Origin: Pyrinomonadaceae bacterium
GTDB lineage: Bacteria; Acidobacteriota; Blastocatellia; Pyrinomonadales; Pyrinomonadaceae
Assembly (NCBI GenBank): GCA_036563455.1
Contig: DATCMK010000029.1
Span: 2,396 to 66,395, forward strand
Length of the DNA stretch: 64,000 nucleotides
Direction of reading: 5' to 3'
The notes beneath the pieces were generated by a model. It had not been told where the DNA came from and did no database searches. It worked only from the letters and a program-made list of their open reading frames with translations. The translations under genes and the position numbers were made by a program. Below, in pieces: positions 4,387-62,554 of the stretch. How positions within the stretch are numbered: position 1 is the stretch's first letter; the number at the start of each line of letters is the position of its first letter.

Positions 4387-4502
4387 TTTTCCCGCAAAGG
4401 CGCGAAGATGCAAAGATAAGACGGCGAAGTTTGATAAAAATCTTCGCCGGAATTAAAAATCCTTTGCGTTTTTCCTTTGCGTCTTTGCGCCTTTGCGGGA
4501 AA
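4387..4502. repeat. Family-2 element between the M1 peptidase stop and the XPB start: terminal inverted repeats TTTCCCGCAAAGGCGC / GCGCCTTTGCGGGAAA with an internal hairpin and four CTTTGCG tandem units
   Basis: Read directly: ..ccTTTGCGtttttccTTTGCGtcTTTGCGccTTTGCGGGAAAc. Confidence 0.8.
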
Positions 4503-4503
4503 C

Positions 4504-7287
4504 TTACTTCCCGAATTTTTCCCGAATTTTCACCGCGCGTTCCAATCCGTCGACGTTTTCCAGTATTTTCAGCCGCAAATCTTTATCGAGACTCTGATTG
4601 CTCGCCAGGAATTTGTTGACCGTGTCCAAAGCCTCCCGGCTTTTTTGCCCGCCGAGAAAGGCGCCGAGCCAGCCGTTGACGAAGAAGATCTTGCGCGTGC
4701 GCTTGAGATTCGGCAGTTCGGCGAGCGCGGTTTCCAGGTACGGCAGCGTCAGTTCGGAATGCCGGGCGGAATTGAACGGCACGAACGCCGCTTCGATCCA
4801 GCTTTCCGAAATGTTTTTGTCGGTCATAAAATCCCGGAAATACTTCGCTTTCGATTCGGTCGTCGCGATTCCGGCGCGCGCCGCGTATGCGTAGCGTTTC
4901 GCGTCGTCCGAGGTTTCCGTTTTTTCGAGATTCGCCAAAAGCTGCGGCGCGTCATTGTCGCCCAAAACGAGCAGGCGCGTGACGAGATCGAATTTGTCCT
5001 TCGTGCGCAATTGAAATACGGCGAGCTTCGATTTTCCGGCGAGAATGTCTTTCAGATTCTGCCGCGCCTGCGCGCTCGACGCCAGATTCAAGTACGCGCG
5101 GTAAAACGTGATGCGCTGACCGGGCGTTTTGGCGCTGCCGATGCGCTCGGTCAACACCGTTTCGAGCCGGGTCGAAAGCTGGTCGCGCGCGGCGTTCGGA
5201 ATGTAGTAATTCAGCGCCGTGCCGACGCGCGACAGAATCGCGTTGATCGTCGATTCATCCTCTTCGACGGCGATGTTTTTGATCGCCAGTTCGACGTAAT
5301 CTTTCGGATTTAGTTCCGCTTCGCGGACCGAATCCCACAAGCTGCCCCACATCATCGAGCGCAGAAAATCGTCCTTTTCCGTCTCGATATTTTTCAAGAC
5401 GTAATCGCGGCTTTTCTCGTCGAGCAAAAAGATGCCGTAGCCGTAATCCTGATAGTTCGGGAAAATCAAATCGGGCATCGGATGATTGCGGTTATAGTTT
5501 TTATCCTTATCAAACAATCGGGGCAGATAGTCGGTGTACGGATTTCCGGACACAAGGTTCTCCTGAATTTCCGTTTCCGCGCCGTATTTGTATAAGGTTT
5601 TAACTCGTATCGCCCAGGGAGAATCGGCGAAAGGAGCGCTCAGCTCCAATCCGAGCGCGGGGACCATCAACGAGCCCGCCGTGAATTTTCCTTGCGAGTC
5701 GGTCTGCGATTTTTCGTAATGACCTTCGATCAGCTTAACGCGAATAATCGGAACGCCGGGCTGCTTGACCCAATACTCCGCCCACTCCGGCAATCCGCGG
5801 CGGTCGTAAACTTTATTGAATTCATTGACCAAATCTTTCCATTCGGCGTTCGCGTATTCGTGTTTTTTCAAAAACGCGCGCACTGCCGCTTGAAATTTGT
5901 CCTCGCCCAGATAAAATTCCGCCTGCCGCAAAAACGACGGCGCTTTGCGGTAAACGATGTTGCCGTAAGCGCTTTTGGCGGCTGAAAGATTCGGGATTTC
6001 CTGATAGATCGGCGTCGTGCCCTTCGTCGAATCCGTTAAGTAGGCGAGCGGCTTGTTGCGCTCGTAAAAGGCTTTCCAAGCGTTGTATTCGGGCATCACT
6101 TTTTCGAGCGTTTTATACGCCATGAACTCGGCGAAACCTTCTTTCAGCCATAAATCGTCGAACCATTTCATCGTCACCGTGTCGCCGAACCATTGGTGCG
6201 CGGCTTCGTGAAAGATCAGGTTCGCGCGCGAGACGTAATCGTTCTTCGTCGGCTCGCTCGGAAAGATGACGCTCGCCTCTCTCAAAAACGTCGCGCCGGC
6301 GTGTTCCATGCCGCCGAACGGAAATTCGGGAATCAAAACCGTGTCGTACTTCGAAAACGGGAATTTGTGATCGAAATACGTTTCGAGAGTTTTGACGCCC
6401 TCGCGCGTCAGACGAAAGAATTCCTTTTCGTGCGGCTTGAATTTTTCCGCCTGCGAGCGGCGCACGAAGACGCGGAAATTGTTGACGGTTCCTTCCATCG
6501 CCAAGTCTTTGATCGATTCGCCCTTCTCATTGACCGGACGGTTTTCCTGAAAGTCGACGAAATCGCCGGCGGCAAAAGCGAAAACGTACGTGCTGATCGG
6601 CTTGGTTTCGGCGAACGTGAAACGGTCGGTGTCGGTGTTGTAGTCCGACGTTTTGCCGATCGAATTGCTGACGACGCGTTCGAAAGATTTACTCGCGACT
6701 TCGAGCGTAAAGCGTGCCTTCAAATCCGGCTGATCGAAGACGGGAAAAGCGGTGCTCGCGTCCGACGGGACGAACAGCGAATAGATATACTCCGCGCCGT
6801 CTTCCTTATCGACGTAGCGCGTGAGCGCGGCGCCGGAAGTCTTGATCGGCGAGCCGAATTTGATGTCGATGACGTTTTCGCCCGCTTTCAAAAGCCTTTT
6901 GGCGATGATGATATGTTCTTTGTCGACCGCATACGCGAAGTTTCCGCTGCCCGGCAATTCTTTGACGACCGATTCGTTGACTTTGACGACCTCGGCGAAC
7001 GGCTTGTCCTTATCGTTCGCAAACTGCGTCGTGCGCCAATCGAGAATCAAATCCTGTTTCGCGCCTTCTTCCGATAAATCGACGCGAATTTCGATCTCGC
7101 CGGCCATCAGCGGCGCTTGCTTTTCGAGCGTCAGATTCAATTTGTAACGCACGTCCGAGTAATGCGCGGCGCGCCATTTCGCGAGCGCCTGCGAAACGCC
7201 CGCCTCGATTTGCGCCGGCGGATTTTGCGCGCAGCTGATTTCCGTCATCATAAGCGTCAGAAACAAAAGGAATGCGAAAAGCTTCAT
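4504..7287 (-). CDS. pepN: M1 family zinc aminopeptidase (aminopeptidase N-like), secreted
   Basis: Carries the HEAAHQWFGD...WLKEGFAEF (HExxH-x18-E) motif and is 927 aa long. N-terminal signal peptide MKLFAFLLFLTLMMTEISCAQ. Confidence 0.85.
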   Translation of the reverse strand: MKLFAFLLFLTLMMTEISCAQNPPAQIEAGVSQALAKWRAAHYSDVRYKLNLTLEKQAPLMAGEIEIRVDLSEEGAKQDLILDWRTTQFANDKDKPFAEVVKVNESVVKELPGSGNFAYAVDKEHIIIAKRLLKAGENVIDIKFGSPIKTSGAALTRYVDKEDGAEYIYSLFVPSDASTAFPVFDQPDLKARFTLEVASKSFERVVSNSIGKTSDYNTDTDRFTFAETKPISTYVFAFAAGDFVDFQENRPVNEKGESIKDLAMEGTVNNFRVFVRRSQAEKFKPHEKEFFRLTREGVKTLETYFDHKFPFSKYDTVLIPEFPFGGMEHAGATFLREASVIFPSEPTKNDYVSRANLIFHEAAHQWFGDTVTMKWFDDLWLKEGFAEFMAYKTLEKVMPEYNAWKAFYERNKPLAYLTDSTKGTTPIYQEIPNLSAAKSAYGNIVYRKAPSFLRQAEFYLGEDKFQAAVRAFLKKHEYANAEWKDLVNEFNKVYDRRGLPEWAEYWVKQPGVPIIRVKLIEGHYEKSQTDSQGKFTAGSLMVPALGLELSAPFADSPWAIRVKTLYKYGAETEIQENLVSGNPYTDYLPRLFDKDKNYNRNHPMPDLIFPNYQDYGYGIFLLDEKSRDYVLKNIETEKDDFLRSMMWGSLWDSVREAELNPKDYVELAIKNIAVEEDESTINAILSRVGTALNYYIPNAARDQLSTRLETVLTERIGSAKTPGQRITFYRAYLNLASSAQARQNLKDILAGKSKLAVFQLRTKDKFDLVTRLLVLGDNDAPQLLANLEKTETSDDAKRYAYAARAGIATTESKAKYFRDFMTDKNISESWIEAAFVPFNSARHSELTLPYLETALAELPNLKRTRKIFFVNGWLGAFLGGQKSREALDTVNKFLASNQSLDKDLRLKILENVDGLERAVKIREKFGK

Positions 7288-15885: not shown

Positions 15886-16395
15886 ATGAACATCATCAAA
15901 TACGACCCTTTTCGTGAAATGCGCAGTTTGCAGGATGAAGTGAACCGTCTGTTTGCTTCAAGTTTCTCGCGCGGCAGCAGCAGTGAAAGCGATTTAATGC
16001 GCGGCGCGTGGACGCCGAGCGTCGACATCTTCGAAAACCAGAACGAAATCGTGCTCGAGGCGGAATTGCCGGGCATGAAACCGGAAGACGTCAATATTTC
16101 GATCGAAAACAACGTTCTGACGATTCACGGCGAACGCAAATTCGAAAAGAAAGACGAAGGCGATAATTTCCATCGCGTCGAACGTTCCTACGGCGGCTTT
16201 ACGCGCTCGTTCACGCTGCCGCCGACCGTTTCGAGCGAAAACGCGAACGCCGAATTCGAAAACGGCGTCCTGCGCTTAACGCTCGCCAAACGCGAGGAAG
16301 CCAAGCCGCGCCGCATCGAAATCAAAGCGACCGGCGGCGGTTCGCAGCCGAAAACGATCGACACAAAAGCCAAATCGGACACGGCTAACGCATAA
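15886..16395 (+). CDS. Hsp20/alpha-crystallin family small heat shock protein
   Basis: The alpha-crystallin domain is present (..WTPSVDIFENQNEIVLEAELPGMKPEDVNISIENNVLTIHGER..) with a strong SD. Confidence 0.9.
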   Translation: MNIIKYDPFREMRSLQDEVNRLFASSFSRGSSSESDLMRGAWTPSVDIFENQNEIVLEAELPGMKPEDVNISIENNVLTIHGERKFEKKDEGDNFHRVERSYGGFTRSFTLPPTVSSENANAEFENGVLRLTLAKREEAKPRRIEIKATGGGSQPKTIDTKAKSDTANA

Positions 16396-16498: not shown

Positions 16499-19096
<2,598 letters not shown>

Positions 19097-19100
19097 AGAT

Positions 19101-19190
19101 TTTTAGCCGCGAACAAACACGAAAGGGCGCGAAATTTTCATGTTTGAAGTTAGATTAATTCGTGAAGTTTCGTGTTTGTTCGCGGCTGAT
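19101..19190. repeat. Family-1 palindromic intergenic element (copy a), immediately after the clpB stop
   Basis: ttttAGCCGCGAACAAACACGAAA...TTTCGTGTTTGTTCGCGGCTgat, with arms of about 20 bp perfect. Confidence 0.85.
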
Positions 19191-19250: not shown

Positions 19251-19910
19251 ATGAGTTGGTTTAATAAAAAAAAGATGAACGAGAAAGATTTTAATAACGA
19301 AGAAATATTAGAAGATATTTTGGAAGAAAACGACGGTCAGGAAAGCGGCTTCGATTCGGAAGCGCCGAAACAGCAGGTCAAATCGATGCGCGAAACCGAG
19401 CTTGAAAACAAGCTGAAAGCCGAAACCGAGCGGCGCGAAGCGGCCGAAGCCAAACTCGTCGGCGTGCAGACGAAGTTCGAAGAAATCAAAACGCAGATGG
19501 AGCGCGAGACGCAGGAAATGCGCGGACGCATGCAGAAAACGCTCGAAGACCGCGCTAAACAGGGTCAGTTCAGCTTTTTGACGACGCTGCTGCCCGTTTT
19601 GGACAACTTGAACTTGGCGATCGATCACGCCGAAAAAGATTCGTCGCTCGAACATCTTTTGGGCGGGGTCAAAGGCACGGCGCGCTCGTTCGAGCAGGCG
19701 CTGATAAGCGTCGGCGTCGAGCCGGTCAAGTCGATCGGCGAGGAATTCAATCCCGAATTCCACGAGGCGGTCGATATGGTCGCGGTCGAACCGGAAAACG
19801 ACGGACGCATCACGGCGGAATATTCGCGCGGCTATCGTTTCGGCGACCGGCTGCTGCGTCCGGCGCGCGTGCAGGTCGGAAAAGCGATGGCGCAAACCGC
19901 CGGCGAATGA
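19251..19910 (+). CDS. grpE: Nucleotide exchange factor GrpE
   Basis: Coiled-coil N-terminus plus the GrpE C-terminal domain (..LLPVLDNLNLAIDHA.., ..HEAVDMVAVEPEN..). Confidence 0.85.
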   Translation: MSWFNKKKMNEKDFNNEEILEDILEENDGQESGFDSEAPKQQVKSMRETELENKLKAETERREAAEAKLVGVQTKFEEIKTQMERETQEMRGRMQKTLEDRAKQGQFSFLTTLLPVLDNLNLAIDHAEKDSSLEHLLGGVKGTARSFEQALISVGVEPVKSIGEEFNPEFHEAVDMVAVEPENDGRITAEYSRGYRFGDRLLRPARVQVGKAMAQTAGE

Positions 19911-20798: not shown

Positions 20799-20955
20799 AC
20801 CTTTCAAGCGAAAGAATTTACCGCTCGGAAGCCCGTTATTTTCGGCTTTTCCCGAAAAAACTTTCAGCAAACGGTCGGCGAAATGATATGATATTTAAGG
20901 CAGAACGGACATGCTTTTCGGCATCAAAGTCTTAGTTTTAACAAGAGAGAAATAT

Positions 20956-23235
<2,280 letters not shown>

Positions 23236-25245: not shown

Positions 25246-25593
25246 TTAAAAAAATAAACAGGTACGAAGTCACCGTGCTTCATACCTGCAGAAACATTAC
25301 CGTGTCCTTCTTTGACATGCTTACGAGGTTAGCTGACGGGCTAGAAGCAAAGAAGTCTTCCGCATCAATCGCTTGATGCTGCGCCCCGTGTTTCGTTTCG
25401 AAACTCTGGTTCCCCCGCGCCGCCTGCATTAAATTCAAGCGGCTTCAGCGACAAATTGTATTTAAGTTTATATAATTTCCGGACAAGAAAATCAAGTTTT
25501 AACAAAGCGCGCATTCGATCCGAGCAGCGCCGCACGCGTTGAATTTCATTCCCGAATAAAAATAAAAACGCCGTCAAGTATTCGAGCGTTGGT

Positions 25594-25653: not shown

Positions 25654-26178
25654 TTATTTATTCAGCAGATTGGTCGTCGACTCGGTCACGCTCGAATGGT
25701 GAATCATTTCCGCCGTATTCGCGCCCGGCATTACCAGATCGACCGGAATGCTTTGTGCCGAAGGCAACCCGGAATTTTGCCTTTCGCTCGTTGAAAAATT
25801 CGAAACCGGTTTTGAAGATAAATTTCTTTCGCCTCGCCCGCCGTTATCGCCGCGCATAAAATATTCGACGATCGGCTTGACGTTTATCAAGAGCGAAAGC
25901 AAAAGCCATGCGACGACCAGCGCGACGATCCGGTTGCTGTGTCCGGGCGGCAATTCGACCGTCACCGCGGCGACGACGAGCGCAAAAAAGAACATCAGCG
26001 CCGCGCCGATCGTGAGATCGCGCTTGCGGAGCGAACGATCCGTTTTTTGAATTTCGGGCGATTGCGGCAAGCCGTCTTCGCTGAGCAGCGCTTTAACGAC
26101 GTTCAGCTGAAAACCGCACCGCGAACAAAAACGCGTCTCGTCGGAAATTTGTTCCTGACTGCATTTTGGACAGTACAT
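25654..26178 (-). CDS. Zinc-ribbon domain membrane protein
   Basis: N-terminal CPKC..x16..CSRC zinc ribbon, then two hydrophobic helices. Confidence 0.55.
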   Translation of the reverse strand: MYCPKCSQEQISDETRFCSRCGFQLNVVKALLSEDGLPQSPEIQKTDRSLRKRDLTIGAALMFFFALVVAAVTVELPPGHSNRIVALVVAWLLLSLLINVKPIVEYFMRGDNGGRGERNLSSKPVSNFSTSERQNSGLPSAQSIPVDLVMPGANTAEMIHHSSVTESTTNLLNK

Positions 26179-28230: not shown

Positions 28231-28341
28231 GAAGACGGAAGACAGTAGACAGTAGGCAGTAGATAGAATGTAGTGGGCGAAAATAATTTGTTTGTCCTCA
28301 ATCTACTACCTACTACCTTCCGTCTTCCGACTACTGTCTTC
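28231..28341. repeat. Large imperfect hairpin built from CAGTAG heptamers between the truB start and the esterase stop
   Basis: Left arm GAAGACGGAAGACAGTAGACAGTAGGCAGTAGAT and right arm ATCTACTACCTACTACCTTCCGTCTTC, plus a third arm GACTACTGTCTTC pairing with GAAGACAGTAG. Confidence 0.8.
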
Positions 28342-28347
28342 TATCCT

Positions 28348-29139
28348 CTATTCTTCCCCCATCGTCGGGTACAAAAATCTCAAGACTTCGCCGAAGCGCG
28401 CCGCCCATGCGGATTCTTCGTGACGGGCTTCGGGAAATTCGTAATAGGCGAAATCGAGATCGTTCCGCCAGCCGTTCGCGAGCAGGATTTCCTTGAGCGC
28501 GCGCACTTGATGCTTGATGCGCGAGCCTTCTTTTTTGCCGATGTCGAGCCAAATCCTGAGCGGCAGACGCTCGCCGGTTTTGGCGACCTCGCGAATGATC
28601 TGATTGTTCGCCCACCAGACCGACGGCGACAAAACCGCGAGCCGGCTGAAAACGTCCGGTCGTTTGAAGCCGAGATAAAGCGAAACCAACCCGCCTAAAG
28701 AAGAGCCGCCCAAACCGGTGTGCTCGCGTTCGGGCTTCGTCAGGTATTCGCGGTCGATGAACGGCTTTAATTCTTCGATGAGCATGCGCCCGTAATGATC
28801 GGCCTTGCCGCCGTGCCCGCGCATTTTGCCGGCGGCGCTTTTAACCGGCGTGTACTCGTCGATCCGCTTCTCGCCCGCATTGTAAATGCCGACGATGATC
28901 AGCGGTTCGATCGCGCCCGCCAAAATAAGATCGTTCGCCGTCCGGTCGACGCCCCAGACGATGCCGCCGAACGCGTCTTCCGGTCGGATCAGATTCTGCC
29001 CGTCGTGCATGTATAAAACCGGGTAGCGCCGCTTCGGCTCTTCGCCGTAACCGGGCGGCAGATAAACCAAAACCTTGCGCGGCGCGTCGAGGTGCTGCGA
29101 GCCGAAATTTTCATGTACCCTTACCTGTTCGTTTAACAT
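28348..29139 (-). CDS. Esterase (putative esterase/enterochelin-esterase-like family)
   Basis: Motifs LYMHDGQNL and GGSSLGG. Confidence 0.7.
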   Translation of the reverse strand: MLNEQVRVHENFGSQHLDAPRKVLVYLPPGYGEEPKRRYPVLYMHDGQNLIRPEDAFGGIVWGVDRTANDLILAGAIEPLIIVGIYNAGEKRIDEYTPVKSAAGKMRGHGGKADHYGRMLIEELKPFIDREYLTKPEREHTGLGGSSLGGLVSLYLGFKRPDVFSRLAVLSPSVWWANNQIIREVAKTGERLPLRIWLDIGKKEGSRIKHQVRALKEILLANGWRNDLDFAYYEFPEARHEESAWAARFGEVLRFLYPTMGEE

Positions 29140-29213: not shown

Positions 29214-29756
29214 ATGTGGCGCAAAAGGCTGGAAATTAAAGAAGAAAAGGAACGCATCATCGAGGATTTCGAAAAGGCGCGCCAGCGCACGCTCGACCGC
29301 GCCGTCAATCTTTTGACTTACAAGCCGCGCTCGGTCAAAGAACTGCGCGAGCGGCTGCTCGAAAAGGACTGGACGAACGAGCAGATCGTCGACGAAACGA
29401 TCGAAAAGCTCAAGTTTTACGGCTACGTCGACGACGCGCAGTTCGCGAAAAGCCTCGCCGCGTCGCAGATCCGCCAGAAGCCGGTCGGCAAGCGCGTCCT
29501 TAAACAAAAGCTCGCGCAGAAAAAACTCGACCGCGAAACCGTCGACGAGGCGATCGAAAAAGCTTTGGAAGAAACGCCCGAAGAGGAAATCATCGACCGC
29601 GCGATCGAAAAAAGATTGCGCCTCAAAGGCAAGCCGGAAACGCGCGAAGACGCCAAGAAATTTTACGATTTCCTGCTGCGGCAGGGCTTTTCCTACGATC
29701 TCGTGAGCCGCAAAATGCGCGAGATCGCAGCGAGAAGCTACGACGAAGGAAATTAG
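29214..29756 (+). CDS. recX: RecX family regulatory protein
   Basis: Repeated three-helix modules and a basic, coiled character. Size and composition fit RecX. Confidence 0.65.
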   Translation: MWRKRLEIKEEKERIIEDFEKARQRTLDRAVNLLTYKPRSVKELRERLLEKDWTNEQIVDETIEKLKFYGYVDDAQFAKSLAASQIRQKPVGKRVLKQKLAQKKLDRETVDEAIEKALEETPEEEIIDRAIEKRLRLKGKPETREDAKKFYDFLLRQGFSYDLVSRKMREIAARSYDEGN

Positions 29757-29830
29757 CCGCGAATTAACGCGAAAGCCCACGAAAAATATTTATAAGTTTC
29801 GTGGGCTTTCGCGTTAATTCGCGGCTAAAG
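29751..29830. repeat. Family-1 palindromic element (copy b). The recX TAG stop lies inside AATTAGCC.
   Basis: aattAGCCGCGAATTAACGCGAAAGCCCACGAAA aatatttataag TTTCGTGGGCTTTCGCGTTAATTCGCGGCTaaag, a perfect stem of about 30 bp. Confidence 0.9.
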
Positions 29831-37091: not shown

Positions 37092-37216
37092 TAAGCCGCG
37101 AATGAAAAGATTTTTTTACTTAGCGGCTTCGCGCCTTTGCGGGAGAAATAGTTTCCCGCAAGGGCGTAAAGCCGCATAAGAAAACCAAGACCGAAATCCG
37201 CGAAATTCGCGGCTAA
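37092..37216. repeat. Composite element after alaS: family-1 outer arms enclosing a family-2 hairpin
   Basis: Outer arms AGCCGCGAAT...ATTCGCGGCTaa. Inner hairpin GCGCCTTTGCGGGAGAaatagTTTCCCGCAAGGGCG at about 37129-37167. Confidence 0.8.
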
Positions 37217-37983: not shown

Positions 37984-38062
37984 TTTTAGCCACGAACAAA
38001 CACGAAATAACACGAAAACCGGTTGAATTTATTTCGTGTTGTTTCGCGTGTTCGCGGCTGAT
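37984..38062. repeat. Family-1 palindromic element (copy d)
   Basis: ttttAGCCACGAACAAACACGAAAtaaCACGAAAA...TTTCGTGTTGTTTCGCGTGTTCGCGGCTgat. Confidence 0.85.
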
Positions 38063-39204: not shown

Positions 39205-39283
39205 TCAGCCGCGAGCGAACACGAAATGCGCACGAAATAAATTTACTGATTTTTCGTGTCCGTTCGTGTTCGCTCGCGGCTGA
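39205..39283. repeat. Family-1 palindromic element (copy e) between convergent genes
   Basis: atcAGCCGCGAGCGAACACGAAAtgcgCACGAAA...TTTCGTGtccgTTCGTGTTCGCTCGCGGCTgat. Confidence 0.85.
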
Positions 39284-43728: not shown

Positions 43729-43744
43729 TTCTTCGCGATTGAAG

Positions 43745-43905
43745 CATTCATTTGTTCATTGATTCATTGTTAAAAGAAAAATGAACAGTTGAACGAAAAA
43801 TGAACAAATGAATGAATGGCTCAATTTATTTAATCCAAAATCCAAAATCTAAAATTCAAAATGGAAATGTGTTAATCTAAGATTTCAATTCCCGACGAGG
43901 AGAAA
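43745..43905. repeat. AT-rich palindrome (CATTCATTTGTTCATT ... AATGAACAAATGAATG) followed by AAAATCYA-like tandem repeats, upstream of the ALDH gene
   Basis: Read directly. GC is far below the window average. Confidence 0.6.
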
Positions 43906-51314: not shown

Positions 51315-51396
51315 ATTCGGCCGCGAAGTAGCACGAAAATTCACGAAAGGTTTTTAAAGTGTTTTTCGTGTTATCTCGTGTTATTTCGCGGCTAAG
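51315..51396. repeat. Family-1 palindromic element (copy f) upstream of recN
   Basis: attcgGCCGCGAAGTAGCACGAAAattCACGAAA...TTTCGTGttatcTCGTGTTATTTCGCGGCTaag. Confidence 0.8.
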
Positions 51397-51426
51397 TTTT
51401 ATGCTAATCTGTGATTTACAATTTTT

Positions 51427-53112
51427 ATGCTTTCTCTGCTGAAAATCAGAAACATCGCGCTGATCGACGAGCTCGAGCTCGAATTCGCGGGCGGGCTGAA
51501 TCTTTTGACCGGCGAAACCGGTTCGGGAAAATCGATCATCGTCGACTCGCTCGGCGCGCTGACCGGCGAGCGCATTTCGTCCGAACTGATCAAGGAAGGA
51601 ACGACGAGCGCGCGAATCGAAGGGCTTTTTACGGTGCGCCCCGACGAAAGCCTGCACGAAACCTTCAATGAAAGCGGCATCGAGCTCGACGACGCGGACG
51701 AAATCGATCTGATCGTGCGGCGCGAGCTCGCCGCGACCGGCAAAAACCGGATTTTCATCAATAATCAATTAGTCACGCAGGCTTTTTTGCGCAAGATCGG
51801 CGCGCACCTCGTCGACATTCACGGGCAGGGCGAACAGGCGACGCTTTTTAACGCTTCGACTCACCTGGAAATGCTCGACGAGTTCGCGAATCTGAAATCT
51901 TTGCGCGACAAAGCCGGCGAAAAATTTCGGAAACTGGCGGAAATCCGGCGCGAGATCGAAAATCTGCACGAAGACGAAGCGCAGAAACTCCAACTGCTCG
52001 ACATTTTGCAGTTTCAGGTCGACGAGATCGGCAAGGCGAATCTGCAAACCGGCGAGGACGAGCAATTGGAAGAAGAAAAACGGCGGCTGAACAACGTCGA
52101 AAAACTCTCGTCTTTGAGCGAAGAATCCTACCTTTTACTTTACGAAAACGAGGAGGCGACGATCACGACGCTCGAAAAGGTCGTGCGCCGGGTCGCCGAG
52201 CTTTCCGAGTACGAATCTTCTTTCGCCGAATACAACGAATCGCTCGCGACGGCGCAGGCGGTTCTCGAAGACCTTGCGTTTTCCGTGCGCGACTTTCGCA
52301 ATTCGCTGGAATTTTCGCCCGAACGCCTGACGGAAATCGAAAACCGGCTCGCGGAAATTTCGCGTCTCAAACGCAAATACGGCGGCACGATCGAAACCGT
52401 GCTCGCGCATTACGCCGAATCTTCGGAGCGCCTGAAAAACATCGAAACCGCCGAACTGCGGGAAGCCGAACTGAACAAAGAATTAAAGGCGGCGCGCGAA
52501 GATTATCTGAAAACGGCGCGCGAACTGCACGAACGGCGCGAAAAATCGGCGAAAAAGCTGGAAAAGGACATCGAGGCGAACTTAAAGGCGGTTTCGCTCG
52601 AAAAGGCGCGGTTCGAAGTGCGCATCACGGCTGACCCGGACGACGACAAGTCCTTTTCTGCGAAGGGTTTGGACCGCGTCGAGTTTTACTTTTCCGCTAA
52701 TCCCGGCGAAAGCGTGCGACCGATCGCCCGGGTCGCGTCCGGCGGCGAATTGTCGCGCCTGATGCTGATCCTGAATACGACGACGAAACTTTCGGAAAGC
52801 GCGAAAACGATGGTTTTCGACGAAATCGACACCGGCATCGGCGGGCGCGTCGCCGAAGCGGTCGGGCTGAAACTGAAAGAACTGGCGAAAACGCAGCAGG
52901 TTTTATGCGTCACGCACCAGCCGCAGGTCGCGTCCTTAGCCGATCATCATTTCGTCGTCCGCAAGGAATCGGACAAGAACCTGACGCAGGTGCGCGTGCG
53001 CGAGCTCGACGAGACCGAAAAGGTCGAAGAAATCGCGCGCATGCTCGCCGGCGAAAAGATCACCGACACCGCCCGACAGCACGCCCGCGAAATGCTGGCG
53101 GAAGCTAGATAA
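51427..53112 (+). CDS. recN: DNA repair protein RecN
   Basis: N-terminal Walker A (GETGSGKSI), long coiled coil and a C-terminal SMC-like signature/Walker B. Confidence 0.9.
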   Translation: MLSLLKIRNIALIDELELEFAGGLNLLTGETGSGKSIIVDSLGALTGERISSELIKEGTTSARIEGLFTVRPDESLHETFNESGIELDDADEIDLIVRRELAATGKNRIFINNQLVTQAFLRKIGAHLVDIHGQGEQATLFNASTHLEMLDEFANLKSLRDKAGEKFRKLAEIRREIENLHEDEAQKLQLLDILQFQVDEIGKANLQTGEDEQLEEEKRRLNNVEKLSSLSEESYLLLYENEEATITTLEKVVRRVAELSEYESSFAEYNESLATAQAVLEDLAFSVRDFRNSLEFSPERLTEIENRLAEISRLKRKYGGTIETVLAHYAESSERLKNIETAELREAELNKELKAAREDYLKTARELHERREKSAKKLEKDIEANLKAVSLEKARFEVRITADPDDDKSFSAKGLDRVEFYFSANPGESVRPIARVASGGELSRLMLILNTTTKLSESAKTMVFDEIDTGIGGRVAEAVGLKLKELAKTQQVLCVTHQPQVASLADHHFVVRKESDKNLTQVRVRELDETEKVEEIARMLAGEKITDTARQHAREMLAEAR

Positions 53113-53194
53113 ATTAGCCACGAAAAAACACGAAAAAGGTAAAAATTTCAGTGAGATCTTTCGTGAAATTTCGTGTCTGTTCGTGGCAAAAATA
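53112..53194. repeat. Family-1 palindromic element (copy g), directly abutting the recN TAA stop
   Basis: taaATTAGCCACGAAAAAACACGAAAA...TTTCGTGaaaTTTCGTGTCTGTTCGTGGCaaaaat. Confidence 0.85.
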
Positions 53195-53198
53195 TATT

Positions 53199-54221
53199 AT
53201 GCAATCGGAAATCTTAGCGAAAGTGATTCGCGGCGAAACAGTCGAGTCCGTGCACCGCGGGCATCTCTTCATCGTCGACGGCGCGGGCAACGAAATCGTT
53301 AACATCGGCGACGCGGAAACCTTGGCGTTTATTCGTTCTTCGGCGAAGCCTTTTCAGGTTTTGCCTTTTTTGATGAGCGGCGGCGCGGAAAGGTTCGGTT
53401 TTCTGGAATCGGAGATCGCGCTCGCGTGCGCGTCGCATTCGGGCGAAAAGATACACACGACGATCGCCGAAAAAATGCTCAAAAAAATCGGATTGGCGGA
53501 ATCGGATCTGCGCTGCGGCGCGCATCTGCCGTTCAACGAACAGCGCGCCGAGGAAATGATCCGCGCGGGCGAACGGCCGACGCAGCTGCATAACAACTGT
53601 TCGGGCAAACACGCCGCGATGCTCGCCTTCGCGCTTCTTCTCGGCGCCGACATCGAGACTTACGATTCGGTCGACAATCCGGTTCAGCGGGCGATTTTGC
53701 GGACGATCGCGGATTTCACCGAAACGCCCGCCGAAGAAATCCCGATCGCCGTCGACGGCTGCGCCGCGCCGAATTTCGCTTTGTCGGTGAGGGCGATGGC
53801 GAAAGGCATTTTGAAGCTCGTTTTTCCGCCCGCCGATTTCGGCGCCGAGCGGCGCGAAGCCTGCCGCCGCGTCGTCACCGCGATGATGAATTACCCAGAG
53901 CTCGTCGGCGGTACGGAAAGGTTGGACACGCTTTTAATGACGGCGGCGCGCGGGCGGTTCGTCTCGAAAATCGGCGCGGAAGGCGTCTGGCTGTGCGGCG
54001 TTTTGCCCTCCCCGCGATGGGAAAAAGGCTTGGGCATCGCGCTGAAGATCGACGACGGCGACGACAAGCGCGCCCGCGCCGTCATTTCGATCGAGGTTCT
54101 GCGGCGGCTCGGGATTTTTGAAGAATCGACGCTCGCCGAATATTCGCCGCTGCCGATCAAAAACCGCCGCGGCGATACGGTCGGCAACGTCGAGACAAGC
54201 GTAAAATTAGCCACGAATTAA
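53199..54221 (+). CDS. Asparaginase-II-like (PF06089) family protein
   Basis: Carries the HNNCSGKHAAML motif and has the overall size of the family. I chose the start at MQSEIL, outside the repeat. The last five codons (KLATN) and the stop are encoded by the next repeat copy. Confidence 0.55.
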   Translation: MQSEILAKVIRGETVESVHRGHLFIVDGAGNEIVNIGDAETLAFIRSSAKPFQVLPFLMSGGAERFGFLESEIALACASHSGEKIHTTIAEKMLKKIGLAESDLRCGAHLPFNEQRAEEMIRAGERPTQLHNNCSGKHAAMLAFALLLGADIETYDSVDNPVQRAILRTIADFTETPAEEIPIAVDGCAAPNFALSVRAMAKGILKLVFPPADFGAERREACRRVVTAMMNYPELVGGTERLDTLLMTAARGRFVSKIGAEGVWLCGVLPSPRWEKGLGIALKIDDGDDKRARAVISIEVLRRLGIFEESTLAEYSPLPIKNRRGDTVGNVETSVKLATN

Positions 54222-54285
54222 CTCGAATTAACGCGAATTTATTTTAATTCATTTCGTGAAATTTCGTGTCTATTCGTGGCGAAAT
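54203..54285. repeat. Family-1 palindromic element (copy h), containing the stop codon of the preceding gene
   Basis: aaaATTAGCCACGAATTAACTCGAATTAACGCGAA...TTCGTGaaaTTTCGTGTCTATTCGTGGCgaaat. Confidence 0.85.
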
Positions 54286-54309
54286 GTTTTTTGCGTTAAA
54301 ATCTCTTTT

Positions 54310-54843
54310 ATGGCAGAAGCAACACCGCAGGAAAATTACCCGCCGAAATTGCGGCAGACGGCGACCGGCGACATCGACGTCAATTCGCTGGCGGACCTTT
54401 TGGAATGGTTTTTGAATTACGATCAGCGCGTCGCGCTCGTCCGGCATCCGCACGTCGAGGAGCTTTATCAATGGAAACAGAAGGACGACGCGGCGCACGG
54501 CACGGAAGTCTACCCGTTCGACAACGCCGAAGCGCGGTTCGCGGTCGGCGCGTTTCAGGCGCTGGCGGAAAACCCGACCGAAGAATCTTTGGCGCGCTGG
54601 ATCACCGACGTTTTGCAGGCTTTAGGCGAAGCGAAGCAGACGAACGAGGACATCGCGGCGGAGCATAAATTAGACCCGGCGAAATCGCATCTGGCCGAAA
54701 GCGGGAAAATCCCGATGAACACCGAAAGACGATTGTATCTGACGAGCTGCTGGGTCGAAGCGCTCTGCACGGCGGAAGTCAGATTTCTCGGATGGGTTTA
54801 TCAGGAACTGTACGGCAAGCCGTTTCAGCCGGTTGCCGAATAA
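54310..54843 (+). CDS. Hypothetical protein
   Basis: GC3-rich ORF. I chose the start at MAEATPQ, outside the repeat. Confidence 0.5.
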   Translation: MAEATPQENYPPKLRQTATGDIDVNSLADLLEWFLNYDQRVALVRHPHVEELYQWKQKDDAAHGTEVYPFDNAEARFAVGAFQALAENPTEESLARWITDVLQALGEAKQTNEDIAAEHKLDPAKSHLAESGKIPMNTERRLYLTSCWVEALCTAEVRFLGWVYQELYGKPFQPVAE

Positions 54844-54844
54844 A

Positions 54845-55081
54845 ATGCTGTTATGTGAAGGAAGATTCGAAGGAATCGTCGGCTCTGATTTGGAACGCGG
54901 CGGAATGTTTTTGGAAGTCAGCGAAACTCCCTACAATGCGCTTGAAATAGTTTTGGAAATCTTTTATTCGGACGCAACGAATAAGTTTTCGATGACACTT
55001 TTCAAAGAAAACGTCGTGTCGGAAGTTATCGAAGAAGCCGTGAAAACAGCGAAAGAAAGACTCGTTCCGGTAAATTCATAG
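54845..55081 (+). CDS. Hypothetical small protein in a low-GC segment
   Basis: ORF only. GC is clearly lower than neighbours. The track start is a TTG at 54833; I used the ATG. Confidence 0.25.
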   Translation: MLLCEGRFEGIVGSDLERGGMFLEVSETPYNALEIVLEIFYSDATNKFSMTLFKENVVSEVIEEAVKTAKERLVPVNS

Positions 55082-55856: not shown

Positions 55857-55913
55857 ACGCCTTCCGGCGTTGAACCGCGACCGAAAGCTATCTCGATGAT
55901 CCTTAAATTCTTA

Positions 55914-55977
55914 CTTTGCGGCTTTGCGGCTCTGCGGGAGGACGAAAATTTCCCGCAAAGACGCAAAGCCGCAAAGG
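55914..55977. repeat. Family-2 element: CTTTGCG tandem repeats forming an inverted repeat around GCGGGAGG...TTTCCCGC
   Basis: CTTTGCGGCTTTGCGGCTCTGCGGGAGGacgaaaatTTCCCGCAAAGACGCAAAGCCGCAAAGG. Confidence 0.8.
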
Positions 55978-56027
55978 AAAACGCGAAAAATTTCGACCGG
56001 TTAAATTGTTTTTGAGATAGCTGCCGG

Positions 56028-59513: not shown

Positions 59514-59578
59514 AACGCGAAGACGCGGAGGGCGCAAAGAAATTATAAAAATCTTTGCGCCCTCCGCGTCTTCGCGTT
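59514..59578. terminator. Perfect 27-bp-stem hairpin between convergent genes, followed by a T-run (bidirectional terminator; family-2-related core GCGCAAAGA/TCTTTGCGC)
   Basis: AACGCGAAGACGCGGAGGGCGCAAAGAaattataaaaatTCTTTGCGCCCTCCGCGTCTTCGCGTTgaaatttttt. Confidence 0.8.
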
Positions 59579-61242: not shown

Positions 61243-62475
61243 ATGATCCAAAGGATAAAAAAATTCTTTGCCCGGTACCAAAACATGTCGGGCAATGTCT
61301 TCGCTTTAAGTCTGGTCAGTCTTTTGAACGACACTTCGAGCGAGATCATTTATCCTCTTTTGCCGACCTTTCTCGCCTTGACGCTCGGCGCGTCGCCGTT
61401 CGCGATCGGGCTGATCGAGGGCTTCGCCGAATCGGTCGCCGCGCTTTTGAAGCTTTTTTCCGGCTACCTGAGCGACAAATTCAATAACCGCAAACTTCCC
61501 GTTTTCATCGGCTACGCGCTCGCGAGCGTGACGCGCCCGCTGCTCGCGTTCGCCGGCAGCTGGCAGCAGGTCTTGGCCGTGCGCGTGACCGACCGGGTCG
61601 GCAAAGGCATTCGCGGCACGCCGCGCGACGCGCTTTTAGCCGATTCCGTCGCGCCCGAAAAGCGCGGGCTCGCCTTCGGTTTCAACCGCGCCGCCGACCA
61701 CATGGGCGCGGTTCTCGGTCCGGTCTGCGCGTTCGTTCTGCTTTATTTTCTGGCGGGCGATCCGCAGAATCCGACGGCGCGCGATTACCGGCAGGTTTTT
61801 CTGTTCGCTTCCGTTCCGGTCGCGCTCGGGCTTTTCGTGATCGTCTTTTTCGTCAAGGAAAAACCGCACGAAACGCCGATCGCGAGCGGCGCGCTGACGC
61901 CGATCAGGCTTTCGCTCACGGAGTTCGACGGCAACTTCAAACGCTTTCTGCTCGTCGTCGCGGTTTTCACGCTGTCGAATTCGACCGACGCGTTTCTGCT
62001 GCTGCGCGCCGAGCAGTCGGGCGTCGCGCCGCCCCTGCTGCCGCTTTTGTGGATGGCGCTGCACGTCAGCAAGGTTTTGTTCTCGCTCGTCGGCGGCGAT
62101 CTTTCCGACCGTTTCGGACGCAAAACGCTGATCTTTGCGGGCTGGCTCGTTTACGCGCTCGTTTACGCCGGTTTCGCGTTCGTCGCTTCCGAGTGGCAGG
62201 CGTGGGCTTTGTTCATCGTCTACGGCGTTTATTTCGGACTCACCGAAGGCGTCGAAAAGGCGCTCGTCGCCGATCTCGTTTCGCCGGAAAAACGCGGCAC
62301 GGCGTACGGGTTTTACAACCTCGCCTTTTCGATCACGGTTCTGCCCGCCTCGATTTTGTTCGGGCTTTTCTGGAGCAGGCTCGGCGCGGCGCCCGCCTTT
62401 CTGATCAGCGCCGCGATTTCGCTGTGCGCCGCCGTTTTGCTTTTGACCGTTAAAGCCAAACAGGAAGAAAATTAG
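61243..62475 (+). CDS. MFS transporter
   Basis: 12-transmembrane architecture and MFS loop motifs (..RVTDRVGKGIRGTPRDA..). Confidence 0.8.
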   Translation: MIQRIKKFFARYQNMSGNVFALSLVSLLNDTSSEIIYPLLPTFLALTLGASPFAIGLIEGFAESVAALLKLFSGYLSDKFNNRKLPVFIGYALASVTRPLLAFAGSWQQVLAVRVTDRVGKGIRGTPRDALLADSVAPEKRGLAFGFNRAADHMGAVLGPVCAFVLLYFLAGDPQNPTARDYRQVFLFASVPVALGLFVIVFFVKEKPHETPIASGALTPIRLSLTEFDGNFKRFLLVVAVFTLSNSTDAFLLLRAEQSGVAPPLLPLLWMALHVSKVLFSLVGGDLSDRFGRKTLIFAGWLVYALVYAGFAFVASEWQAWALFIVYGVYFGLTEGVEKALVADLVSPEKRGTAYGFYNLAFSITVLPASILFGLFWSRLGAAPAFLISAAISLCAAVLLLTVKAKQEEN

Positions 62476-62554
62476 CCACGAACGAACACGAAAGGACACG
62501 AAACATAACTTAAAAATCTTTCGTGAAAATTCGTGCCCGTCCGTGGCTAATTTT
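62468..62554. repeat. Family-1 palindromic element (copy i), containing the TAG stop of the MFS gene
   Basis: aaaATTAGCCACGAACGAACACGAAAggaCACGAAA...TTTCGTGaaaaTTCGTGCCCGTCCGTGGCTAATtttt. Confidence 0.85.

Follow-up and report, generated by a model that had tools for sequence, protein, structure and literature searches.

A dispersed palindromic repeat at gene 3' ends in a Pyrinomonadaceae genome and its probable part in the C terminus of an asparaginase-like protein

How are the ends of genes affected when a palindromic repeat is located directly beside them? This question is raised by a 64-kb stretch of DNA (in the following, the window) from a metagenome-assembled genome (MAG) of the Pyrinomonadaceae (Acidobacteriota), in which two copies of such a repeat, designated g and h, bracket a gene for a protein of the Asparaginase_II family (PF06089). 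Copy g separates this gene from recN, and copy h separates it from a gene for a conserved hypothetical protein of 177 amino acids (aa). An earlier interpretation, the sequence-only reading, had pointed out that the repeat can be read in frame at the C terminus of the asparaginase and at the N termini of both downstream proteins, and had proposed that insertion remodelled gene termini or that annotations in related genomes carry repeat-encoded extensions. The window sequence matches an independent Logan assembly without a difference across 9,023 nt.

In our view, copies g and h probably are old, partly decayed representatives of a family of dispersed, non-coding, and non-autonomous palindromes at gene 3' ends, which resembles miniature inverted-repeat transposable elements (MITEs) and repetitive extragenic palindromic (REP) sequences, and copy h has probably displaced the stop codon of the asparaginase gene. 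The effect on the gene end is ordinary and well precedented; the more interesting part is the widely distributed and apparently undescribed repeat family.

Gene termini beside copies g and h

The repeat coordinates of the sequence-only reading were correct to within 2-4 nt of A-rich flank. Copy g, which it had placed at 53112-53194 and exactly at the recN stop, is a real repeat at this site; its core, however, comprises only 53114-53190, with TTAGCC at 53114 and the right end GGCAAA at 53190, and the remainder is A-rich flank. The core (in full: TTAGCCACGAAaaaaCACGAAaaaggtaaaaatttcagtgagatcTTTCGTGaaaTTTCGTGtctgTTCGTGGCAAA) has lost the third unit of its left arm, is preceded by a single nucleotide after the TAA stop of recN, ends 8 nt before the asparaginase ATG at 53199, and is directly followed by AAAAATATATTATG. 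Orthologous copies are present in three of the genomic loci compared (L001, L122, and L126), where recN does not possess a TAA of its own but stops at the TAG within TTAGCC. Copy h shows 72-96% identity to its orthologous copies in L001, L122, L124, and L126. Copies g and h form the weakest hairpins of the nine family members in the window, with folding energies of -26.2 kcal/mol (z = -5.65) and -31.8 kcal/mol (z = -4.64), respectively. The asparaginase gene enters copy h by 15 nt, i.e., by four codons and the stop. Copy h had been thought to encode the ending KLATN together with the TAA; this holds for Leu-Ala-Thr-Asn and the stop, which are located within the core, but not for the Lys codon (54204-54206), which belongs to the A-rich flank.

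In 120 homologues, the conserved body of the asparaginase ends with ..NRRG..VGRVEASF(K/N)(I/L/F) and the tails diverge beyond this point; the Pfam domain stops at residue 332 of 340, before the tail. About 16 of the 120 proteins end with xLA(A/T)(N/K), as encoded by TTA GCC RCG AAN, and some homologues read further into the repeat (LATNEHE, LAANKHE, LAANEHESAQNH). For four orthologues with such an ending the DNA was at hand (L001, L122, L124, and L126), and in all four the repeat is located at the site and in the same frame, which yields the ends LAAN*, LAAK*, LATN*, and LAANKHE* at orthologous positions and is closed by a TAA or TGA in a repeat spacer. Other hairpin types occupy the asparaginase end elsewhere: in L123, the tail NLNLTTETQRHREI is read from CACAGAG units, in L121, L125, L132, and L134 a CGCAAAG-type hairpin directly follows the stop codon, and in L120 a CATAGAA-type hairpin is present. 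Hairpin-free ends read ..SFKI* (L127, L128, and L133) or ..SEKIL* (L131). Because LAxN is found only beside the repeat and other orthologues have other tails or none, the comparison indicates that the C-terminal tail of the asparaginase is derived from the repeat. The proposal that insertion remodelled this C terminus thus agrees with the data, including the empty sites of distant relatives, and related annotations do carry repeat-encoded C-terminal extensions, as had been supposed. The opposite case, a KLATN tail conserved independently of the repeat, was not found among the orthologues with DNA at hand. Taken over all hairpin types, about a quarter of the 120 proteins have tails that seemingly originate from this or another hairpin.

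The native end in L129 is ..ACT TTA TAA; therefore, the Leu codon would be native and an insertion at its TA would have displaced the stop codon, so that Ala-Thr-Asn may be new and about three residues may have been added past the conserved domain. A single origin of the LAxN tail was rejected, the tails being scattered and polyphyletic on a weakly resolved neighbour-joining tree of the 120 homologues. Just 3' of copy h, the right end of an older CGCAAAG-type hairpin has been preserved. This relic matches ..CTTTGCGTTAAAATC in L121, L125, and L132, where a hairpin of this type still fills the spacer; it is kept in the window and in L124 and missing in L001, L122, and L126. The scattered tails and the uneven retention of the relic point to repeated gain or replacement of LAxN tails rather than to one ancient event.

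With respect to the downstream N termini, it is correct that the longest open reading frames (ORFs) begin inside the right arms of the repeats, at GTG 53151 (MRSFVKFRV..) and GTG 54256 (MKFRVYSW..); they exist because each TTCGTG unit contains a GTG. The cleaner start just outside copy g, which had also been noticed, is ATG 53199. It is the start in the gene calls of NCBI/JGI and of the Logan assembly, which yield a protein of 340 aa from it and one of 177 aa starting at ATG 54310, and the same Met is used in 116 of the 120 homologues; the annotated protein P0001 (340 aa) is identical to the translation of 53199-54221. The calls for the homologues of the 177-aa protein in L001, L121, L122, and L123 also begin at ATG. 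No in-frame start was found upstream of the asparaginase ATG in L001, the frame of the second extension is not conserved in L122, since the ATG of the 177-aa gene there lies at a distance from the repeat that differs by 14 nt, and the upstream DNA in L121, L123, and L125 is another hairpin type. These observations speak against repeat-encoded N-terminal extensions, and on this comparison both are longest-ORF artefacts. In three of the 120 homologues (P0043, P0050, and P0060), long N-terminal extensions unrelated to MRSFVKF occur, which are probably over-extended gene calls into upstream intergenic DNA.

The repeat family in the window and in other genomes

The repeat is not due to chance. Its nine copies in the window (Table 1) are imperfect palindromes of 76-125 nt with the ends TTAGCCRCGAA...TTCGYGGCTAA and three CRCGAA units of about 10 nt per arm. 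The units are conserved, have a period of 9-11 nt and a constant polarity (CRCGAA first, TTCGYG second), and are separated by variable spacers. With up to two mismatches, TTCGTGAAATTTCGTGT occurs six times in the window (0.06 expected), and TTAGCCRCGAA with at most one mismatch occurs 17 times (5.1 expected), as inverted pairs. All nine copies fold into a long hairpin (z = -4.6 to -12); the stems, interrupted by internal loops, are A/U-rich and 25-35 bp long. When 28 copies from the window and other genomes were aligned, three conserved helices emerged with covarying pairs, such as columns 7/82 (AU in 15 copies, GC in 9) and 12/77 (UA in 12, CG in 10, GC in 2), and the identity of spacer 1 is 0.70 between the arms of one copy versus 0.42 with the arms of other copies. 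Each right arm contains three GTGs and each left end a TAG and open frames, and for this reason longest-ORF callers add false N termini, while real proteins gain variable repeat-encoded C termini.

All nine copies are located at the 3' end of a real gene, and the nine genes are unrelated. Public genomes show the same preference: of 141 element ends gathered from them, 48 (34%) have the stop of a long open frame (120 codons or more) at -20 to +3 nt, compared with 54 of 2380 random positions (2.3%), which corresponds to an odds ratio of 22 (p = 6e-36). When long open frames stop within or beyond the left end of an element, 17 out of 22 do so at its TAG (p = 3e-5); of 79 cases outside the window, 17 have an upstream long open frame that is terminated by the TAG of the element.

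The comparison of filled and empty sites was limited by the loci with DNA at hand; a scan of metagenome protein loci provided 11 loci. In L131, only 3 nt separate the TAA of recN from the asparaginase ATG, and the site after the asparaginase gene is free of hairpins. In L121, the convergent genes for an aldolase and a Zn-peptidase are 2 nt apart, whereas hairpins are present between them in the window, L001, L122, and L123. Divergent spacers, which bear promoters, are conserved and devoid of hairpins. Elements are nested in the loops of others in copy c and in L042, L039, L098, and L144, and right-arm relics of displaced elements remain at 51399-51416 and 54287-54303, which suggests that elements replace one another at the same site; at the former position, the intact older element is still present in L001. 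The recN-spacer hairpins of L122 (2918-2992) and L126 (588-666) belong to the same family but show only 73% identity and unit periods of 9 versus 10-11 nt, a difference suggestive of gene conversion or of one copy having replaced another.

When one genome per species was scanned for TTAGCCRCGAANNNNCRCGAA, at least 118 loci were obtained. Among the matches listed, the third unit is present at the right spacing in 73 of 135 hits (0.8% background) and inverted units occur within 170 nt in 64 of 135. The labels of the MAGs among these matches, which can be wrong, comprise several classes of Acidobacteriota, Planctomycetota, Nitrospirota, Nitrospinota, Chloroflexota, Bacteroidota, Zeta-, Beta-, and Deltaproteobacteria, Omnitrophota, and others, in all more than ten phyla. 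The local GC content of the loci ranges from 30% to 69% and the units show lineage-specific variants (CACGAAT, CACGAAA/C, CACGAAG); both speak against contamination as the full explanation. The pattern was also found in 27 stretches of viral contigs. One of these contigs, IMGVR_UViG_3300032053_000240 (36.5 kb; L156, L140, L147, and L158), carries at least nine family arms, several of which are single and, being oppositely oriented, enclose whole structural genes. No description of the CRCGAA hairpin family was found: an Rfam scan of the window at gathering thresholds returned only a c-di-AMP riboswitch and a tRNA, a permissive Rfam scan of 53050-54350 nothing meaningful, full-text literature searches with DNA words of the repeat and words of the encoded peptides only primers and noise, and keyword searches general REP and MITE papers.

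Candidates for a mobilising function were sought in the window and around the loci. Among about 50 window ORFs tested, neither a transposase nor a recombinase was detected. An all-versus-all clustering of 1,651 ORFs near 118 loci among the matches listed yielded only sigma-54 and two-component families. Arms can also be farther apart: in L117, two arms form one element of about 200 nt, and in L041 (4691-6374; MAG labelled Aminicenantes) inverted arms of about 200 nt that start with the family units surround a 1.2-kb insert with ORFs of 73 and 138 aa, which, judged from their sequences, would represent an antitoxin-toxin (VapBC-like) arrangement. Arm pairs separated by 0.7-1.7 kb enclose phage structural genes, e.g., between the L156 arms at 4462+ and 5974-, or the VapBC-like cassette, and no transposase was found inside them.

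Table 1 Genes, repeat copies, and related features in the window (positions according to the window)
Feature	Position	Strand	Remarks
Copy a	19103..19189	.	7 nt past the stop of the 865-aa gene 16499-19096
Copy b	29753..29828	.	Near-perfect palindrome; TAG (29754-29756) is the recX stop codon
Copy c	37092..37216	.	After alaS; outer arms of the family, CGCAAAG-type hairpin (37114-37184) nested in the loop
Copy d	37986..38061	.	After an alpha/beta-hydrolase gene
Copy e	39205..39283	.	Between convergent spore-photoproduct-lyase-like and EamA transporter genes
Copy f	51317..51395	.	Between M14 peptidase gene and recN
Relic of CACAGAT-type hairpin, right arm	~51399-51416	.	Just 3' of copy f
recN	51427..53112	+	ORF, 561 aa, TAA stop; Pfam SMC_N/AAA_23
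Copy g	53114..53190	.	77-nt decayed palindromic element, TTAGCCACGAA ... TTCGTGGCAAA
Spurious extension MRSFVKFRVCSWQKYI	53151..53198	+	From GTG in the right arm of copy g; predicted non-coding
Asparaginase_II (PF06089) gene	53199..54221	+	340 aa; Pfam E = 1e-111, domain end at residue 332
Asparaginase/copy h overlap	54207..54221	+	TTA GCC ACG AAT TAA, Leu-Ala-Thr-Asn-stop; left terminus and first spacer of copy h
Copy h	54207..54283	.	77-nt decayed palindromic element, TTAGCCACGAATTAACTCGAATTAACGCGAA ... TTCGTGAAATTTCGTGTCTATTCGTGGCGAA
Spurious extension MKFRVYSWRNVFCVKISF	54256..54309	+	From GTG in the right arm of copy h; predicted non-coding
Relic TTTTTTGCGTTAAAATC	54287..54303	.	Right end of older CGCAAAG-type hairpin, just 3' of copy h
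Conserved hypothetical gene	54310..54843	+	177 aa; true start ATG 54310
Copy i	62472..62550	.	An MFS transporter gene stops at its TAG (62473-62475)

Further modular hairpins are located at gene 3' ends in the window (4388-4511, 28231-28348, 43735-43830, 55913-55985, 59514-59578, and the one inside copy c). Their units are CGCAAAG/CGCGAAG, GACAGTAG, and TGAATGA, and in the hairpin at 55913 the polarity is reversed, so that the pyrimidine-rich arm precedes the other. These hairpins resemble sister families of the CACGAA type. The 177-aa protein had no match in the Pfam scan; genes for 176-177 aa are found in synteny in L001 and L120-L123. A small ORF (78 aa in the Logan assembly calls) is contained in the 250-nt spacer (54833-55081) that separates the 177-aa gene from the aldolase gene; it is absent in L121 and L122, where the spacer comprises 8-13 nt; L001 has a short GTAG-type hairpin instead. 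The 865-aa gene upstream of copy a is adjoined by genes for Hsp20 (15886-16395) and GrpE (19251-19910) and is a large paralogue of a 774-aa gene (20911-23235). Both share conserved DNA blocks (repeat families D4, D7, and D11) which by sequence alone resemble Clp/AAA+ ATPase motifs; they represent coding paralogy and do not belong to the hairpin family. The c-di-AMP riboswitch mentioned above (RF00379, 69 bits; 25303-25460, minus strand) is located upstream of a 173-aa ORF without a Pfam match (25654-26175, minus strand).

Origin of the hairpins and competing explanations

If the repeats are MITE/REP-like insertions, the elements would settle in A/T-rich DNA at or just past stop codons, with TA or TTAA as the most likely target. 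Copy g would have landed at the recN stop, where relatives use the TAG of the element and this genome its own TAA. Copy h would have landed in or beside the last sense codon of the asparaginase gene (TTA, Leu), by which the native stop was displaced and the reading frame extended through TTA GCC ACG AAT to the TAA in the first A/T-rich spacer of the element. Both hairpins may be regarded as tolerated insertions inside a co-transcribed unit of recN, the asparaginase gene, and the 177-aa gene, where they would at most serve as intercistronic RNA stem-loops, either as a barrier to 3'-exonucleases or as a partial attenuator. Since the asparaginase stop codon is located inside the stem of copy h, the hairpin might hinder the terminating ribosome, as REPs close to stop codons may do. 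Such elements would be an example of small palindromes that come and go at the ends of genes and alter stop codons while leaving the protein unharmed.

Several observations weigh against this interpretation. Hairpin and coding sequence (CDS) show the same identity between the window and L001 (82% each), and between L122 and L126 the downstream hairpin is more conserved than the CDS (96% versus 85.5%); hairpin conservation equal to or above that of the CDS points to constraint or gene conversion. Nearly all close orthologues hold some hairpin in these spacers, so a hairpin could be needed there. One orthologous hairpin differs by a two-sided change, CGCGAAG/CTTCGCG in L001 versus CGCAAAG/CTTTGCG in L122. 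The copies within one genome are diverged, unlike the near-identical copies of a recently active MITE. No recurrent mobility gene and no autonomous partner were found within 2.5 kb of the 118 loci among the matches listed. A target-site duplication is not demonstrable in the flanks (..TTA[GCC..GGC]TAA.., the left flank being set by the search pattern), because TA is palindromic and part of the TTA/TAA symmetry and could be a duplication as well as a piece of the inverted repeat. Finally, termini and units shared across phyla are not explained by simple selfish spread.

The window repeat might represent a single lineage within an undescribed superfamily of modular hairpins that extends across phyla, a reading that we put forward only tentatively and regard as rather doubtful as a whole. 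Its members would share the TTAGCC terminus and three units per arm, with sister types having CGCAAAG, CACAGAG, CGCGGAT, and CATAGAA units; they would target stop codons as well as the loops of other members, restore a TAG stop upon insertion, replace one another at orthologous gene ends, and maintain the symmetry of the arms at the DNA level, with no linked transposase found. If true, this would imply either that a new mechanism mobilises the elements in trans or that they are created and maintained by a host process common to many lineages. A single mechanism behind the cross-phylum signature would represent an unexplored part of the biology of mobile DNA or of 3' ends in bacteria from soil and sediment, which have been little studied.

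The strongest alternative to insertion assumes functional RNA hairpins at 3' ends or between cistrons (attenuators, stabilisers of the mRNA, or terminators that lack a U-tract) that evolve in situ under selection by the host, the coding overlap being a tolerated by-product of a stem placed close to the stop codon. It would agree with the strict location at gene 3' ends and the absence from divergent promoter spacers, with the covariation of the arms, and with T-runs after some copies (a, c, e, i, and h), and we retain it because of the conservation of the hairpins, the two-sided change, and the occupation of both spacers by hairpins of one unit type or another in almost all close orthologues. 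A functional RNA would be expected to leave traces on the transcribed strand, but the sense strand has no folding advantage (more stable in 13 of 31 cases, the antisense strand in 18; p = 0.8) and G.U mismatches in the stems do not exceed A.C mismatches (3 versus 3). Across the family, A predominates in the 3' flank at +2 to +4, T is enriched only at +8 to +12, and a U-tract is missing. On the basis of the A-rich flank, the missing U-tract, and the lack of a sense-strand advantage, intrinsic termination was rejected as the primary reading; in a scan for canonical terminators, neither copy g nor copy h was called as a whole, and the only stem picked was a short one within the right arm of copy f. 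Copy g ends so close to the asparaginase start codon that no room for a promoter is left; transcription of this gene must pass through copy g, and efficient termination there would silence it. Hairpins g and h, the weakest in the window, would not be efficient terminators. Moreover, an identical terminal signature at 30-69% GC in many phyla and viral contigs is hard to obtain by independent evolution in situ, and the nesting and the relics resemble insertion and replacement. We therefore consider host-selected RNA hairpins unlikely, though the most serious competitor of MITE/REP-like insertion.

Alternatively, the palindrome might act as duplex or cruciform DNA, its CRCGAA units, which are about one helical turn apart, being sites for a nucleoid-associated factor, for gyrase or integration host factor (IHF) as at bacterial interspersed mosaic elements (BIMEs), or for a recombinase. 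Conserved units with variable spacers and a period of 9-11 nt, strand symmetry maintained at the DNA level, an invariable order of CRCGAA before TTCGYG, and partnerless single arms that may flank whole genes (L156 and L041) would fit such an array. No candidate protein, however, is linked to the elements around the 118 loci among the matches listed, and one binding specificity cannot explain the phenomenon, because hairpins of the other types at these sites differ in their units and in their period (7-8 nt), which makes a protein-binding array quite improbable. That KLATN, MRSFVKF, and MKFRVYS are real, conserved parts of proteins and the repeat merely reflects a shared peptide motif has next to no probability: open frames exist and LAxN tails recur in homologues, but the tails occur only beside the DNA repeat and vary with its spacers, are located past the Pfam domain and are unrelated or missing in other orthologues, the N-terminal extensions are missing from gene calls and homologues and lack a conserved frame, and the same DNA repeat follows nine unrelated genes.

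Comparison with known repeat systems

The stem-loop straight after a gene and the T-runs after some copies are reminiscent of Rho-independent terminators, from which the repeats differ by their 25-35-bp stems with internal loops, the A-rich 3' flank, and a start codon only a few nucleotides away. Integron attC sites were rejected as a candidate, since RYYYAAC ... GTTRRRY cores stand against TTAGCC ... GGCTAA in the opposite arrangement and the copies follow housekeeping genes (recN, alaS, recX), not cassettes. Rickettsia palindromic elements (RPEs) are palindromic repeats that enter protein-coding sequence. They insert in frame inside genes and add 30-50 residues, whereas only the last few codons and the stop are changed here.

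Correia elements use TA as target. Correia/NEMIS elements of Neisseria, ERIC/IRU, and the enterobacterial RU are intergenic MITE-like palindromes of about 100-170 bp that are co-transcribed with their neighbours and sometimes intragenic or form the ends of ORFs (PMC2759123). They have other sequences, are restricted to certain lineages, occur as near-identical copies within a genome, and are without three-unit arms. The family described here shares with MITEs the small size, the lack of an own ORF, the terminal inverted repeats, the nine dispersed copies, and the difference in presence and absence between loci (empty in L131 and L121, filled in the window, L001, and L122); an autonomous insertion sequence with the same terminal repeats, which MITEs would have, was not found among the about 50 window ORFs or in the 2.5-kb flanks of the 118 loci among the matches listed.

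REPs, BIMEs, and REPINs (long hairpins) are likewise high-copy extragenic palindromes at gene 3' ends, and REPs near a stop codon have been proposed to affect mRNA stability, termination, or translation. Their termini often give a TAG stop; GTAG-tagged REPs supply it to the flanking ORF (PMC3733652). They are distinguished from the present family (76-87 nt, paired TTAG/CTAA at both ends, three direct CRCGAA units per arm) by a length of 20-40 nt and an unpaired GTAG/CGTC tag, which is missing here; a gene for a REP-associated tyrosine transposase (RAYT, a Y1 transposase) was found neither among the about 50 window ORFs tested nor in the flanks of the 118 loci among the matches listed.

The QMITEs of Coxiella burnetii are unrelated in sequence, restricted to a single genus, and organised differently inside. 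QMITE1 and QMITE2 are, however, non-autonomous inverted repeats that overlap the 3' ends of genes by a few base pairs, recN included, and in one strain a QMITE provides EnhC with a C-terminal extension and a stop codon (PMC5896051).

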